Shown piece by piece: positions 7,386 to 45,206 of a stretch of DNA of 45,206 nt. The DNA comes from Escherichia phage Envy: the sequence record NC_031081.1; one strand, 5' to 3'. The position numbers and the translations under genes are program-made. The notes under the pieces were generated by a model. The model saw only the letters and a program-made list of their open reading frames with translations, did not search any database and was not told the origin of the DNA. Each line of letters opens with the position of its first letter. Position 1 is the stretch's first letter.

Positions 7386-7414
7386 TTGCAGTACGGGATT
7401 GGTTGCATTATATT
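7386..7414 (+). promoter_or_regulatory. sigma70-like promoter (TTGCAG-17-TATATT) with two ATTGGTTGCA direct repeats
   Basis: hexamers and spacing upstream of 7461 CDS. Confidence 0.45.
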
Positions 7415-39216: not shown

Positions 39217-39244
39217 CGTTCAGTCCTCTTGTTGGTGTGCAACC

Positions 39245-39273
39245 AATATAGCAGGGCGCCAGGCAGGGTGCAA
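39245..39273 (-). promoter_or_regulatory. sigma70-like promoter (TTGCAC-17-TATATT) with palindrome TTGGT-N5-ACCAA at 39232-39246
   Basis: -10 and leader near-identical to promoter at 29087..29116. Confidence 0.5.
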
Positions 39274-39427
39274 CCAATATTAATCACGCGCATGAAAAAG
39301 TTGATCGCTATCTGCTGTGACTGCAAACCGCATTTTCACTCAGCATAATACAACCTGCATTGGTTGCCTAGTTCATCGACGACCGCACTTAGCATCATGC
39401 TGCCGTGTATTTTGCAATCCCCGGATT

Positions 39428-39625
39428 TTATTCAGTCTCAGACGAGGGGGGCCATTGACCCCCGTCTAGTCTGAAAGACTGGGGTGCTGTCCCGCTGTCC
39501 CGCTCCTCTGGAAGCCGCGCCATCCGTGGCGGGACGGGGGTGCTGTCCCGCTTTGTCCCGCCCCTTGTTTGTCCCGCTTTTTGTCCCGCTTACTTTATGC
39601 AATAAAACTGCATAACTATTCACTA
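39428..39625. repeat. noncoding element copy B: same hairpin, GTCCCGC iterons and TTTATGCA AT-rich unit as copy A
   Basis: identical ~58-bp hairpin module and ~53-bp iteron block at same relative spacing (108 bp). Confidence 0.8.
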
Positions 39626-39673
39626 TATTCACACTACACGGCAACCAATACGACCAGATAAAAACACTCAAAA

Positions 39674-39755
39674 TGGCGACCAATGCGCGCAAATTTTAAT
39701 CGTCTAGCGATATGGGAATCCCCATATTGGCGACCAATGCGCGCAAATTTTAATC
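39674..39755. repeat. two 28-bp direct repeats (TGGCGACCAATGCGCGCAAATTTTAATC) flanking palindrome ATATGGG-aatc-CCCATAT; second copy overlaps primase stop
   Basis: perfect direct repeat, period about 54 bp. Confidence 0.7.
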
Positions 39756-42014
39756 TTTTAAGTCGTCATCGGTCGCCGAAAGCGTGATGGGTATCTTCGT
39801 TTTGATGACGATATTCGACGACCCATAGATGGCCCCGGTGTGCGGATCGGTATAAAAACCGAGCACGCCGCGCTCGACCATATCGTCAATTGCCTTCGTC
39901 GATGTGCCACCTTTCGCAAGCCCAGCCTGGCGGACAATTGCCGATTTGCTGAATCCGGTATGGTCCGGGTTATCTTCCATCAGTTTTTCCAGCGCTGCAT
40001 AAAGCACTTTCTCTTTTTCGTTGCGCGGTCCTGCGGCGTTCTCTTCCTTAACTGCGGCCTTGCCAGCGGCCTTTGCCTGCTCAATGGCGAACGGTGCCAG
40101 GGCGACCGGTACGAGGTAAAGAGTCTCGTCGCGTGGCGTGGAGGCAATCGGCTTGACGTCCCATCCGGCAACCACGTCGCCGAAGTCTGGCCCGGTGCTG
40201 GTGGACTGGTGCGCCTCGAACGCTTCTGACTTGCGGAGATCCACCTTCACCTTGCACTTGAGCAGGACGAAGCCACGCGGCGCTTGCTTGATGCCGTTAC
40301 GTGCTTTTTCGTGATACAGGTTCAATTGGCCTGGCTGGTTGTCGTCCGGCTGTTCAAGGAAGAAAGCAGAATCGACAGCACCATGAAGCGCGCCGGATCC
40401 GCGTGGCGTTCGGCTTCCGTTTGCACCCTTAGCCGGGTGGTGGATGACGCCCGCACTGCCACCTGTATTTTCCGCGATGGCCTTCAGCGCTTTGACCACT
40501 TCGCCCATATCGCTGGCGTTGTTCTCGTCGAACGGTTTTGCATCGGCGGACCGCAGCGCAACAGTCTGGTTGAGTGAGTCGAACGCCACCAGGCCAACCG
40601 GCTCGCCGTTAGCGGTGCGGTTGATGAAGCTGATAACTTCACGCAAGCCGGATTTGCTGGTGATATCCCAGCCTCGTGATTGCAGATCGATAATGTGCAG
40701 CTTGTCCAGGTCGTGCTCATATTTAATCTGCAATGCTTCCTTACGCTGGTTAGAGGCTTCGCCACCTTCCGCGTCGAAATAGAAGCAATGAGACTGGACG
40801 ACCTTCGCACCGCCGAACGGAATACCGGCGGCAACCGCGCCCATTTGGCCCAGCACATAGAACGATTTACCGATGTTCGACTCGCCCGCCATATACCAGG
40901 TCGATTTAAAGTTAATCAACCCCTCGATGATCGGGTCGTGCTTACTGAACAGCGCAACCGGCTCGTTGTCCAGGTCTGCATCAGTACACACGCCGTACTC
41001 GTCGCCGTCTCCGACCGCATCAACGATATGTTCATAGCACGATTCCACTTCCTCATCGTCCAGTCCCGGAAGGATGGCGGCGATTTGCTTACGTGACATG
41101 TTGTGCGGCTCGACGTTCAGGTGGTCCGGGATCCCGATAAGACGTAGCGCCAGGTGCTGGTGTCTGTTCAGTTCCGAGCAACACTCGTTGCCGGTGTGCA
41201 TACACTTGAAACGGATCTCGCCATCCTTGACCATGATAGCCGTCGACCCTTCGCCGCTGTGCAGATGTTCGTTCGGGCACGGCACTTCATAACCGCGACC
41301 GGAAGATAACTCATCGAATCCTGCCTGGAAGCACCAGTCCAGAATGCCGTCTGCCACTGCGTCGTCGCCCTGGGTAAGCTCGCGGCGTACTTCCTCCTTC
41401 TCCACGCCCAACTTATCCGCCAGGCGAAGCAGACGACGGACGCGGGCACGCTTGCCGTAGTGGCACTTAATAACAGACTGCTGGTGTGGCAGGTACATCA
41501 GGCGGTTTGTGTCTTTCGTGCAATCGTCGAAGTCCACATCTGACAGACCAAGTTGGTGTAATAGCGCATACTGGACACGGCCCAGGTCTTCAGCCGGTAC
41601 AGGCTTGTCCGTGAGTACCAGGAATCGAGCGCAACGCGTGCCGCCTTTCAGCGGGTGGCGGTCGCCGGTTGTGGTGTGAAATACATGTTCCAGTCCCGCG
41701 TCGATGAACGCCTTACGGCAGCGGCGCAGGGTGCGGGTGTCGGTACGGTCAATATCGAAGAACAGGATCGAGCGGTCCACTGCACTGGTCTTGCGGCGCA
41801 AGCCGTCACTGGTATACGCCACGATACCATCGGCCTTACGCTTGCGGCGCGCATACTCGGCTTTATCTTCCGTTTTGTTGATATGCACCGAGGAGATTTC
41901 TTTCGCATCATTGATAAATTCGAAAAACTCTTCGGTAGTCATCTGGAAGTTTTCCGCCCTGGCTTTTTCGCCTTTTTTAGCGGGTCGTGTTACAGCGAAT
42001 TTAATCAAGCTCAT
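39750..42014 (-). CDS. DNA primase-helicase (prim-pol-like N-terminus, RecA/DnaB-like ATPase C-terminal half)
   Basis: 754 aa; LFFDIDRTD acidic motif; Cys/His cluster; Walker A GESNIGKS. Confidence 0.75.
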   Translation of the reverse strand: MSLIKFAVTRPAKKGEKARAENFQMTTEEFFEFINDAKEISSVHINKTEDKAEYARRKRKADGIVAYTSDGLRRKTSAVDRSILFFDIDRTDTRTLRRCRKAFIDAGLEHVFHTTTGDRHPLKGGTRCARFLVLTDKPVPAEDLGRVQYALLHQLGLSDVDFDDCTKDTNRLMYLPHQQSVIKCHYGKRARVRRLLRLADKLGVEKEEVRRELTQGDDAVADGILDWCFQAGFDELSSGRGYEVPCPNEHLHSGEGSTAIMVKDGEIRFKCMHTGNECCSELNRHQHLALRLIGIPDHLNVEPHNMSRKQIAAILPGLDDEEVESCYEHIVDAVGDGDEYGVCTDADLDNEPVALFSKHDPIIEGLINFKSTWYMAGESNIGKSFYVLGQMGAVAAGIPFGGAKVVQSHCFYFDAEGGEASNQRKEALQIKYEHDLDKLHIIDLQSRGWDITSKSGLREVISFINRTANGEPVGLVAFDSLNQTVALRSADAKPFDENNASDMGEVVKALKAIAENTGGSAGVIHHPAKGANGSRTPRGSGALHGAVDSAFFLEQPDDNQPGQLNLYHEKARNGIKQAPRGFVLLKCKVKVDLRKSEAFEAHQSTSTGPDFGDVVAGWDVKPIASTPRDETLYLVPVALAPFAIEQAKAAGKAAVKEENAAGPRNEKEKVLYAALEKLMEDNPDHTGFSKSAIVRQAGLAKGGTSTKAIDDMVERGVLGFYTDPHTGAIYGSSNIVIKTKIPITLSATDDDLKD

Positions 42015-42024
42015 TGCCGTTGCC

Positions 42025-42354
42025 TTACTTTGAAGTTTTATTATTGCGTACCCAGGAGCGCACTGTGCTCTGATTAATTCCGGTCAACTCGGCAATCATC
42101 GCCCAGGATTTACCTTCCTCACGTAGACGGATAACCTGTTTTTTGTATTCTTCCATTTCTTCATTGTGTTTTTGCAGCTTGCTTGCTGCCGTGCCGTTGA
42201 GCAATTCCAGCTTCGCGCGCAATTCTTTTTCGGTAAGTCGCAGACGTTCGATTTCAAATAGCACCGCACCCACGGCATCGGTATACGCCCAGGACCGGCT
42301 AGTCTCACTGCAAACAGTCTTCGTTAACATTTCGATTGCGTCGTTTACATTCAT
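42025..42354 (-). CDS. HTH DNA-binding protein, putative early regulator
   Basis: 109 aa; C-terminal HTH SWAMIAELTGINQSTVRSWV; first gene of minus operon. Confidence 0.6.
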   Translation of the reverse strand: MNVNDAIEMLTKTVCSETSRSWAYTDAVGAVLFEIERLRLTEKELRAKLELLNGTAASKLQKHNEEMEEYKKQVIRLREEGKSWAMIAELTGINQSTVRSWVRNNKTSK

Positions 42355-42368
42355 TGTTCTGCCCCCAG

Positions 42369-42383
42369 TTGGTTAATGACCAA
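42369..42383. promoter_or_regulatory. operator-like palindrome TTGGT-taatg-ACCAA in leader of minus-strand early operon
   Basis: perfect inverted repeat between -10 and RBS. Confidence 0.45.
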
Positions 42384-42385
42384 TG

Positions 42386-42414
42386 AAACTACACCTAAAA
42401 CCGCAGGGTGTCAA
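42386..42414 (-). promoter_or_regulatory. sigma70-like promoter (TTGACA-17-TAGTTT) for minus-strand early operon
   Basis: consensus -35 on minus strand. Confidence 0.45.
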
Positions 42415-42427
42415 CTCCTCTGGAATA

Positions 42428-42458
42428 TTGAAACGGGCGCGCACGCGTGTAATAATAC
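42428..42458 (+). promoter_or_regulatory. sigma70-like promoter (TTGAAA-16/17-TAATAAT)
   Basis: hexamers; followed about 30 nt later by a terminator. Confidence 0.45.
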
Positions 42459-42463
42459 TTTCC

Positions 42464-42521
42464 GTCTCATTGTCTCTTATTGGTTAGCGCCGTCGCATTT
42501 TGCTTCGGCGCTTTTTTTTTG
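42464..42521 (+). ncRNA. candidate short promoter-to-terminator transcript (about 55 nt): small RNA or leader attenuator
   Basis: lies between promoter 42428..42458 and hairpin plus T-run 42486..42521; no ORF. Confidence 0.3.
42486..42521 (+). terminator. rho-independent terminator-like hairpin with 9-T run
   Basis: AGCGCCG-loop-CGGCGCT then TTTTTTTTT. Confidence 0.5.
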
Positions 42522-42531
42522 AAATTAGTTG

Positions 42532-42560
42532 TTGACTCCCTTCTGCAACCAATCTAATAT
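42532..42560 (+). promoter_or_regulatory. strong sigma70-like promoter (TTGACT-17-TAATAT) for plus-strand early genes
   Basis: near-consensus hexamers, 17-nt spacer containing TGCAACCAAT. Confidence 0.55.
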
Positions 42561-42620
42561 TCACTCCGTCGACAGGGCATACCGCCCGGACACCTAAACT
42601 TAACCAATCGGAGATACACC

Positions 42621-43136
42621 ATGTTTGAACAAATCGTAAACTTGATTACTCGCGGCGTAGTAGCGCTGGAAACCATCGCTAAGCATTATGAAACCGTTGG
42701 CGCTGCCGTTGGTAAGCAGGAAGATAAAAAGCCATCTAAGGCGAAAAAAGAAGTCGTCGAAGACGACGACGATGGCGCTGAAGACGAAGCACCGGCGAAA
42801 ACCAAAAAAGCACCGGCTAAAGGTAAGGCTAAAAAAGAAGTCGTAGAAGATGACGACGACGATGCCGAAGACGAAAAACCGGCTAAGTCTAAAAAAGCAC
42901 CGGCAAAAGGCAAAGGCAAGAAAGATGCCGATCCGCTGGCAGAGATGCGCGACGAGATCAAACAGTATGCCGCGATTATTGCCGGTGGTGACGACGACGA
43001 CGCGAACGACGAATTTGACGACCTGCTGGAATCGTTCGAGATCAAATCAATCGCCAAGCTGGAAGATGAAGACGTCGAAGACTTCCACAAAGATCTTAAA
43101 GAAATCGTCGAAACTTATTTCGAACTGGAAGATTAA
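42621..43136 (+). CDS. acidic low-complexity protein with tandem 29-aa repeats
   Basis: 171 aa; repeats KKEVVEDDDDGAEDEAPAKTKKAPAKGKA x2; first gene after promoter. Confidence 0.6.
   Translation: MFEQIVNLITRGVVALETIAKHYETVGAAVGKQEDKKPSKAKKEVVEDDDDGAEDEAPAKTKKAPAKGKAKKEVVEDDDDDAEDEKPAKSKKAPAKGKGKKDADPLAEMRDEIKQYAAIIAGGDDDDANDEFDDLLESFEIKSIAKLEDEDVEDFHKDLKEIVETYFELED
42744..42917. repeat. 87-bp tandem repeat x2 inside CDS 42621..43136
   Basis: two adjacent units about 85 percent identical. Confidence 0.7.
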
Positions 43137-43184
43137 TATTATCCGGCCCGCTAATCTGCGGGCCTATTTTTAGAGGACGAGACA

Positions 43185-43436
43185 ATGGCACGCTTCACGC
43201 TAATTGAGGCGGTGGATTCCCGCGACCAGCGCCCGTACTATTGGCTATTCGAACGCATCGGCAGCTTTCAGTCACGCGTTGCCGTAATAGACAAACGCCG
43301 CAACACCCCCGCGCAAATTAAGCGCACCACCTTTATTAATCCCGACTTTTATATTTGGGCGGATTCAAATCTGGAATATGTTCGCTTCGCAGTTGCATCC
43401 GAAGCAAAAACAATCGACCGCTGGGAGACAAAATAA
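43185..43436 (+). CDS. hypothetical early protein (83 aa)
   Basis: AGAGGA RBS before ATG. Confidence 0.55.
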   Translation: MARFTLIEAVDSRDQRPYYWLFERIGSFQSRVAVIDKRRNTPAQIKRTTFINPDFYIWADSNLEYVRFAVASEAKTIDRWETK

Positions 43437-45045: not shown

Positions 45046-45206
45046 AGTATTCGCAATCTTATTGATGTTTGTTATCGGCGCGCTGGGCTTTATCCTGCAT
45101 TGTGTGCAAGGCGTGTTAATGGTGGCATGGATGATTAGACATCCGACCCGCTGGCTGGATGACGGCTATAGCGAAGCTGCCGTCGATTGGGTGGAGAAGA
45201 ACATCA
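45038..45206 (+). CDS. small membrane protein, 5' part (continues at 1..201 through terminal repeat)
   Basis: ATG overlapping nuclease stop; hydrophobic N-terminus. Confidence 0.45.
   Translation, partial: MNKVFAILLMFVIGALGFILHCVQGVLMVAWMIRHPTRWLDDGYSEAAVDWVEKNI
45080..45206. repeat. terminal direct repeat, identical to 1..127
   Basis: identical sequence at both window ends. Confidence 0.9.

Follow-up and report, generated by a model that had tools for sequence, protein, structure and literature searches.

What does a phage make where the strongest promoter and the strongest terminator of its genome lie only ~57 bases apart? The question is raised by a non-coding gap in the genome of Escherichia phage Envy (record NC_031081.1), a virulent siphovirus of the genus Dhillonvirus. 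The whole stretch of DNA analysed, 45,206 nucleotides (nt), is referred to below as the window; it is rotated relative to GenBank record KX534339 (Escherichia phage Sloth). The gap (42355-42620, 266 bp) separates a minus-strand gene for a helix-turn-helix (HTH) protein from a plus-strand gene for an acidic protein. Since two diverging early operons flank it, the gap is the main early control region, in agreement with an earlier reading made from the DNA letters alone (the sequence-only reading). That reading had also pointed to a promoter-terminator pair that could yield a ~55-nt RNA without an open reading frame (ORF), to be understood either as a small regulatory RNA (sRNA) or as an attenuator. 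From the computational analysis reported here, we consider it likely that a discrete RNA of 55-58 nt is made. With rather less assurance, we favor the interpretation that the promoter, the hairpin and the T-run form a self-contained small RNA gene, whose product would act as a base-pairing regulator. The RNA is probably a previously undescribed one, conserved across the genus Dhillonvirus.

A promoter and a terminator in the early control region

The transcription signals of the gap, and the RNA predicted from them, are as follows.

42428..42456, plus strand: promoter PR1, with -35 TTGAAA (42428-33), 17-bp spacer and -10 AATAAT (42451-56), a 10/12 match
42464..42520, plus strand: predicted small RNA of 55-57 nt, with an unpaired 5' region (42464-42485), a hairpin (42486-42512) and a U-tail (42512-42520)
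42486..42520, plus strand: terminator, with hairpin A-GCGCCG (42486-92) / CGGCGC-U (42506-12), an inner GCA/UGC stem and a run of nine Ts (T9) at 42512-20
42532..42560, plus strand: promoter PR2, with -35 TTGACT (42532-37), 17-bp spacer and -10 TAATAT (42555-60), predicted promoter of the rightward early operon, conserved
42385..42413, minus strand: promoter PL, with -35 TTGACA (42413-42408), 17-bp spacer and -10 TAGTTT (42390-42385), both hexamers conserved in the alignment of relatives

The three sigma-70-like promoters, a palindrome (described below) and the hairpin with its T9 are all present where the sequence-only reading had placed them, and the hairpin begins 30 nt past the PR1 -10, the distance it had given. 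Some of these elements were already on record: the HK578 record (JQ086375) annotates the three promoters, by consensus, and the WF5505 record (MK373790) annotates the terminator, by pattern matching. PR1 carries an extended -10 TG at 42448-49 and, based on a simple consensus score, outranks every other sigma-70-like site on both strands of the 45-kb genome. Runs of at least seven Ts occur twice genome-wide, and just the run at 42512-20 follows a stable hairpin (-15.9 kcal/mol). The predicted 57-nt RNA folds with -16.2 kcal/mol (z = -3.75 relative to shuffles). Because PR1 ranks first in the genome, the hairpin with a run of at least seven Ts is the sole one of its kind and the fold departs this far from shuffled sequences, the promoter-terminator pattern exceeds a chance match. 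Automated scanning had overlooked two parts of the arrangement. It missed the T9 hairpin for the sole reason that its loop limit was 8 nt, and it passed over PL because the PL -10 matches the consensus at just 3/6 positions.

PR2 starts 11 bp past the T-run, so that the terminator isolates the output of PR1 as a separate product. On the other side, the -35 elements of PL and PR1 stand back-to-back, 14 bp apart. From this layout, host sigma-70 RNA polymerase would start at about G42464 and terminate in the U-run at about 42518-42520. The 55-57-nt RNA thus released would consist of a sequence-invariant, unpaired 5' stretch, the terminator hairpin and a long U-tail. Since PR1 is the strongest consensus promoter, the RNA would be expected to be abundant from the first minutes of infection.

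Conservation of the predicted RNA

We compared 25 versions of the region, with flanks 77-100% identical, in an alignment. From the PR1 -10 to the predicted start, each of the seven intervening columns is variable, 1-nt indels included. From G42464 on, 22 of 23 columns are invariant, and the sole exception is a 1-nt deletion in the Ioannina clade. This step, from 7/7 variable columns upstream to 1/23 downstream, places the onset of conservation at the start expected of sigma-70 RNA polymerase for the PR1 -10. PR1 itself varies at 4 of its 29 columns. The unpaired 5' stretch, ~22 nt in length, reads GUCUCAUUGUCUCUUAUUGGUU, and the U-rich UCUCUUAUUGGUUA directly precedes the stem.

The RNA occurs in five distinct versions, and all 10 stem pairs are kept in every one of them. 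In the Ioannina clade the stem GCGCCG/CGGCGC is replaced by UCCCCG/CGGGGA; two pairs are changed on both sides (G-C to U-A and G-C to C-G) and are thus compensatory, and a further pair changes from A-U to G-U, which is tolerated in the plus-strand RNA only. The internal loop is free to vary, and the T-run measures 8-14 nt in every relative. Overall, the RNA region is the most conserved non-coding stretch of the control region. The candidate is short and sharply defined, and its 5' part is invariant across >150 sequenced isolates.

The element is present in 153 of 153 Dhillonvirus GenBank records. Exact-pattern scans of IMG/VR and metagenomes retrieved it in Dhillonvirus contigs only, apart from chance matches, and these scans returned neither seed variants nor new stem variants. 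No Rfam family matched anywhere in the whole window at the gathering score; at E<=10, a search of the gap and of one relative gave only sub-threshold, terminator-driven matches. A BLAST search of the RNA against 5,426 E. coli genomes gave no match, although short host target sites are undetectable this way. Thus, at that sensitivity, the RNA neither copies nor mimics an sRNA of the host or of a prophage. We found no record or paper naming an RNA product of the region. The Ioannina-type stem, GGUUAUCCCCG...CGGGGA, is reminiscent of the E. coli type I-E CRISPR repeat, read on its non-crRNA strand, but we judge this likeness coincidental.

Coding readings of the region were also considered and rejected. 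A plus-strand ORF of 48 amino acids (aa) changes frame or meets early stops among relatives, and a 19-codon minus-strand ORF is broken by 1-nt indels in relatives. A hypothetical protein is annotated over 42376-42522 in several relatives (for example Zumzum, Oekolampad and SM_S22), where the ORF ranges from 7 to 51 aa; since its frame changes or is truncated among relatives, this ORF is probably not a gene. The earlier prediction of a ~55-nt transcript without an ORF agrees with these results, with a predicted length of 55-57 nt from PR1 to T9 and no conserved ORF over the region. At minimum, ORF calls across the RNA region should cease in genome annotation.

Two other explanations of the promoter-terminator pair were considered. 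In the first, the PR1-terminator unit works through the act of transcription: divergent supercoiling could stimulate PL, polymerase released at the terminator could be passed to PR2 or PL, or host silencing proteins could be held off the region. The tight spacing on both sides (14 bp between the -35 elements of PL and PR1, 11 bp from the T-run to PR2), the pairing of the strongest consensus promoter with a PL whose -10 is weak, and a GC content that is the lowest of the genome in the 42001-43000 interval (0.476) are all consistent with such a role. Transcription for its own sake, however, would be expected to place no constraint on the transcribed sequence, and this sequence is the most conserved non-coding stretch there. 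We consider this explanation improbable.

In the second, the hairpin would end PR1 transcripts except where a factor of the phage or the host allows read-through, which would add to the expression of the rightward operon or set its timing, in the manner of lambda PR'-tR'. A promoter-proximal terminator ahead of an operon of the same orientation is what an attenuator would look like, and the 5' stretch of a transcript that reads through could pair back onto the ribosome-binding site (RBS) of the acidic-protein gene. Against this, the operon has its own conserved promoter, PR2, which is also annotated in HK578, and with PR2 starting so soon after the T-run it has no need for read-through. The stem finds no pairing partner in the 23 nt that precede the hairpin, and no alternative antiterminator fold was found. 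No antiterminator-like (Q- or N-like) protein was found among the ten early proteins scanned (of 62), and the length of the T-run in every relative suggests efficient termination. We therefore give attenuation little credence, even less than the act of transcription. The sequence-only reading had left sRNA and attenuator side by side; the sRNA half gains from the conservation onset, the invariant 5' region, the compensated stem, the U-tail of at least 8 nt and the lack of a conserved ORF, and the attenuator half finds no such backing.

Candidate targets and the meaning of the 5' stretch

The invariant 5' stretch would most likely be the part by which the RNA pairs. This stretch, GUCUCAUUGUCUCUUAUUGGUUAG, is pyrimidine-rich and carries two GUCUC units, which makes it resemble an anti-Shine-Dalgarno sequence. 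We propose that it pairs with the ribosome-binding regions of the surrounding immediate-early genes, namely the HTH gene and the first three rightward genes, that for the acidic protein and the two after it, and that pairing would damp or shut off their translation. An RNA-based brake on immediate-early translation is plausible. The proposal is weakest in its choice of targets: taken by itself, the claim that these neighbouring early genes are regulated is less likely than not. The four candidate sites are the following; ranks are by ungapped complementarity among the 62 start regions of the genome and energies are predicted.

42600..42616, plus strand: UUAACCAAUCGGAGAUA, ribosome-binding region of the acidic-protein gene, 114 nt further downstream, same strand, best candidate target; rank 1/62; -17.9 kcal/mol
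42359..42376, minus strand: UUAACCAACUGGGGGCAG, 5' untranslated region and Shine-Dalgarno (SD) sequence of the HTH gene, second candidate target; rank 4/62; -19.4 kcal/mol
43179..43191, plus strand: GAGACAAUGGCAC, SD to start of the second rightward gene (83 aa), candidate target of RNA nt 1-13; rank 5/62; -16.1 kcal/mol
43416..43431, plus strand: GACCGCUGGGAGACAA, ribosome-binding region of the third rightward gene (59 aa), candidate target; rank 2/62; -18.5 kcal/mol

The site at the acidic-protein gene is complementary over 17 nt, with 1 mismatch, to RNA nt 8-24 (about 42472-42487). Amid variable flanks, 16 of 18 relatives have it unchanged, and the sole substitution (HK578) falls on the unpaired position. 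In the predicted fold it lies in an unstructured part of the PR2 leader and would be accessible. The matches at the other three genes are weaker. The site at the second rightward gene is invariant in 18 relatives. In WF5505 the HTH-gene site could form 16 contiguous pairs with the RNA (-23.9 kcal/mol). The predicted duplexes at the four sites, -16 to -19 kcal/mol, lie over the SD or the AUG. Taken together, the four start regions nearest to the RNA rank 1, 2, 4 and 5 of 62 (Mann-Whitney p = 5e-4), and the observed complementarity sum was reached by 0 of 2000 seed shuffles. Based on ensemble co-fold energy they rank 2, 4, 5 and 8 of 62.

Several results weigh against the RNA gene or its proposed targets. 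The four-gene group and the scoring scheme of the target test were picked after the data had been seen. By plain duplex energy the two flanking sites are no outliers (ranks 2 and 5, ~1.9 standard deviations); scans by plain duplex energy, whether genome-wide or over all start regions, fail to single out the neighbours, a consequence of the anti-SD-like seed. The ungapped test, repeated on the full genome of the divergent phage Ioannina, misses significance (ranks 2, 23, 24 and 33; p = 0.10); a gapped energy test gives ranks 1, 4, 5 and 16 of 64, so that this replicate is mixed overall. The HTH-gene site differs widely between relatives (scores of 17 to 38). Swapped RNA-target pairs do at least as well as cognate ones, and no RNA-target co-evolution is detectable in the Ioannina clade. 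The covariation of the stem comes from that one clade and amounts effectively to one or two events, and 24 of 500 shuffles reach the observed values. A literature search for Dhillonvirus found no transcript map, sRNA or promoter study. Finally, the core of the pairing region, ATTGGTT, is also part of a DNA motif family, so that the complementarity may partly reflect protein-binding sites or an old duplication in place of RNA pairing.

Two features of the control region belong to this question.

42369..42383: palindrome TTGGTTAATGACCAA, candidate operator, overlapping the predicted PL start site
42544..42553, minus strand: copy of the phage-wide 10-mer ATTGGTTGCA in the PR2 spacer, candidate regulator site

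The palindrome is kept in relatives except HK578, in which the 5' part of the HTH gene and the region upstream of it are replaced. Exact palindromes of the form TTGGT-N5-ACCAA occur three times in the genome (29115-29129, 39232-39246 and 42369-42383) relative to ~0.04 expected, each just upstream of a gene start, and the palindrome of the gap is therefore a member of a small operator-like family. The 10-mer is present in 10 exact and five one-mismatch copies (4439, 4451, 7381, 7398, 9294, 9306, 12998, 29100, 29114, 38705, 39238, 39269, 39359, 39640 and 42544), a total of 15 that 0 of 100 shuffles reach. These copies are mostly intergenic and often paired, and those at 7398, 9306 and 29100 end 1 nt before a -10-like TATAnT. 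The copy at 42544 is invariant in all relatives while the adjoining spacer bases vary. From its distribution, the 10-mer looks like an operator or activator site of a phage regulon that would include PR2.

These motifs give rise to another explanation, in which the RNA is real but the conservation of its 5' part operates at the DNA level, and the short transcript itself has no sequence-specific role. The ATTGGTT segment, the palindrome, the 10-mer in the PR2 spacer and the site at the acidic-gene RBS would then be an array to which a phage regulator binds, probably the HTH protein, so as to control PL, PR1 and PR2. Three of the four genomic copies of TTGGTTA/TAACCAA fall in the gap, the gene for an HTH protein adjoins it, and both motif families fit a regulator of this kind: the three TTGGT-N5-ACCAA sites all stand at gene starts, and several of the 10 exact 10-mer copies end 1 nt before a -10. 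Yet the 10-mer is matched at only 7 of 10 positions, without its GCA, by the RNA-gene site and by the one close to the RBS, and a site of 7-10 bp leaves unexplained the fixed 23-nt stretch from +1, which includes GUCUCAUUGUCUC. In addition, HK578 has the conserved HTH domain but no palindrome. We regard an explanation at the DNA level as unlikely, though it deserves more weight than either of the alternatives considered above.

The sequences establish the elements, their standing in the genome, the pattern of conservation and the covariation of the stem; that the RNA is made, from its own small gene, and works by pairing is what we infer. If it does control the immediate-early genes, it would be an RNA-based timing device in the lytic cycle, and the far stronger conservation of the RNA region than of its surroundings would be explained. 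A bolder version, which we consider doubtful, is that an abundant 57-nt RNA is the master post-transcriptional switch timing the early-to-middle transition in a strictly virulent coliphage genus; it would pair with GGAGA(C/U)-type ribosome-binding sites of the phage's own immediate-early genes, leftward and rightward alike, and perhaps with mRNAs of the host, and would be the RNA equivalent of T4 RegA/RegB. To our knowledge, very few sRNAs have been assigned a role in virulent phages. The proposal is readily testable, given that Dhillonvirus is represented in the widely used BASEL collection (Bas14-18), whose members grow on E. coli K-12.

Three observations on complementary sequences stand apart from the target test. 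The primase/helicase start of Ioannina, GAGACAAUGAGA (L080 37820), is a perfect 12-nt complement to RNA nt 2-13 and the top match among the 64 start regions of that phage; the window-phage orthologue matches over 9 nt only. GAGAC/GTCTC is under-represented genome-wide (47 copies relative to ~88 expected). Even so, 9 of 62 genes have GAGA(C/T) in their SD region, among them two leftward-operon genes and the three rightward early genes closest to the gap.

Known systems and the surrounding genome

By sequence prediction, the RNA has its own promoter and a Rho-independent terminator and lacks a conserved ORF, as expected for an sRNA gene. It also combines a conserved single-stranded seed with a compensated stem, the covariation being that of one clade. 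The 3' module associated with Hfq comprises a U-rich segment ahead of the hairpin and a U-tail no shorter than 6-7 nt; the sequence has both, with a U-tail of 8-14 nt. In these respects the RNA is like the Hfq-type sRNAs of enterobacteria and prophages (for example DicF), which share its own promoter, unpaired conserved 5' seed and long uninterrupted U-tail. Its length is within 50-100 nt, and its predicted pairing, like theirs, covers SD sequences and start codons. Nearly all described phage sRNAs stem from temperate phages or prophages (review PMC12197685). In contrast to these mostly temperate or prophage-borne Hfq-type sRNAs, the RNA of the window would come from the strongest early promoter of a strictly virulent siphovirus; Dhillonvirus is described as a genus of lytic siphoviruses (PMC8594841), and no integrase or repressor is annotated in the window phage. 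It further differs from known sRNAs in having no relation to an Rfam family and no E. coli homologue by BLAST.

Other phage systems resemble the unit in part. The lambda oop and P22 sar RNAs are ~70 nt long and cis-antisense to a gene on the opposite strand. The unit in the gap is likewise a small self-contained transcription unit within an early regulatory region, but no gene or conserved ORF lies opposite 42464-42520. In phage T4, RegA is a repressor protein and RegB an endoribonuclease; early messages are recognised via the SD region (GGAG-type) and silenced after the burst of early expression. The logic proposed here is similar, as a functional analogy only, the agent being an RNA here and proteins there. 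The c4 RNA of P1/P7 and the CI RNA of P4 are cut from a longer operon transcript and serve prophage immunity. As with these, the RNA of the window lies upstream of its proposed target on the same strand and would pair with the ribosome-binding region of the downstream gene, the complementarity being the 17 nt with one mismatch given above. Unlike them, it has its own promoter and terminator, it belongs to a virulent phage and its complementarity is shorter. A description of c4 is given in PMC12197685.

As outlined in accounts of an Stx phage, StxS is a short RNA that arises from termination at tR' past PR' and is itself a regulator (Sy et al. 2020, PMC7547250, cited in PMC12197685). The layout in the gap is like that of StxS and lambda 6S RNA in that a strong promoter is followed by a terminator within tens of nt, giving a short RNA ahead of an operon of the same orientation. 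In those phages, however, the operon lacks its own promoter and relies on antitermination by Q, whereas PR2 is present here and no Q-like protein was found among the early proteins scanned; in addition, those phages are temperate and the unit is a late one.

The two genes that border the gap head the diverging operons.

42025..42354, minus strand: HTH protein gene, 109 aa, first gene of the leftward early operon, with the primase/helicase gene next
42621..43136, plus strand: acidic-protein gene (ORF), 171 aa with a lysine-rich repeat, first rightward early gene

The leftward operon encodes the HTH protein, a 754-aa primase/helicase and six small genes. The rightward operon encodes the acidic protein, two small proteins, a PD-(D/E)XK exonuclease, a Gp2.5-like single-stranded DNA-binding protein, DNA polymerase I and more. 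The late genes fill the remainder of the minus strand. The acidic protein matches phrog_3127 (function not known) and has no Pfam match. Residues 65-105 of the HTH protein match Pfam HTH_23, Sigma70_r4_2 and HTH_28, and a comparison with PDB sequences gave generic HTH matches only. GenBank names for this 109-aa protein include 'DNA recombination nuclease inhibitor gamma', 'transposase' and 'resolvase'. Based on the Pfam and PDB comparisons, these names have no support beyond the C-terminal HTH and look like propagated over-annotation.

Replication genes on both sides of the gap, together with a cumulative GC-skew minimum at 42-43 kb, would fit one further role for the short transcript, that of priming or activating a replication origin located in the gap, by the primase/helicase operon. 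The skew minimum coincides with the switch in transcription direction, which explains it equally well. The phage codes for its own primase, and positions 39480-39600, past the end of the primase/helicase gene, make a far stronger origin candidate. We consider a primer role highly improbable, the least probable of the explanations discussed. The better candidate is part of a gene-free 530-bp stretch (39217-39750) after the primase/helicase gene, which contains 7-8 GCGGGACA iterons (TGTCCCGC), two to three 38-nt repeats (TTAAAATTTGCGCGCATTGGTCGCCA...) and further copies of ATTGGTTGC. Judging from these repeats, the stretch is probably a replication origin.

Repeats are also found within the control region itself. 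PL and PR2 have GTTGAC(A/T)CCCT around the -35 in common (42405-42415 and 42531-42541); AACCAATCTAATATTCAC, which spans the PR2 spacer and -10 (42547-42564), resembles AACCAATCGGAGATACAC at the acidic-gene RBS (42602-42619); and ACACCTAAA is present twice (42391-42399 and 42590-42598). These internal repeats suggest that the control region was built by local duplication.

The PR2 leader of most Dhillonviruses contains ~137 additional nt, a nearly invariant segment that the window phage is without. It is found at 2170-2330 of L003 (phage bob), in L002 and L004 and in 10 other loci, in place of window positions 42577-42588. RNAalifold predicts a multi-stem fold (-45.9 kcal/mol) in which one pair occurs in three types (A-U, C-G and U-A). 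The segment is not coding, because indels break the frame, and it has no Rfam match even at E<=10. From the modelled fold, it may be an undescribed structured leader RNA.

The ends of the window are identical over 127 nt (1-127 = 45080-45206), and the first 127 nt of the GenBank record adjoin the record's last bases inside the window. Such an overlap is typical of an untrimmed circular assembly, in which case the true genome would be 45,079 bp.

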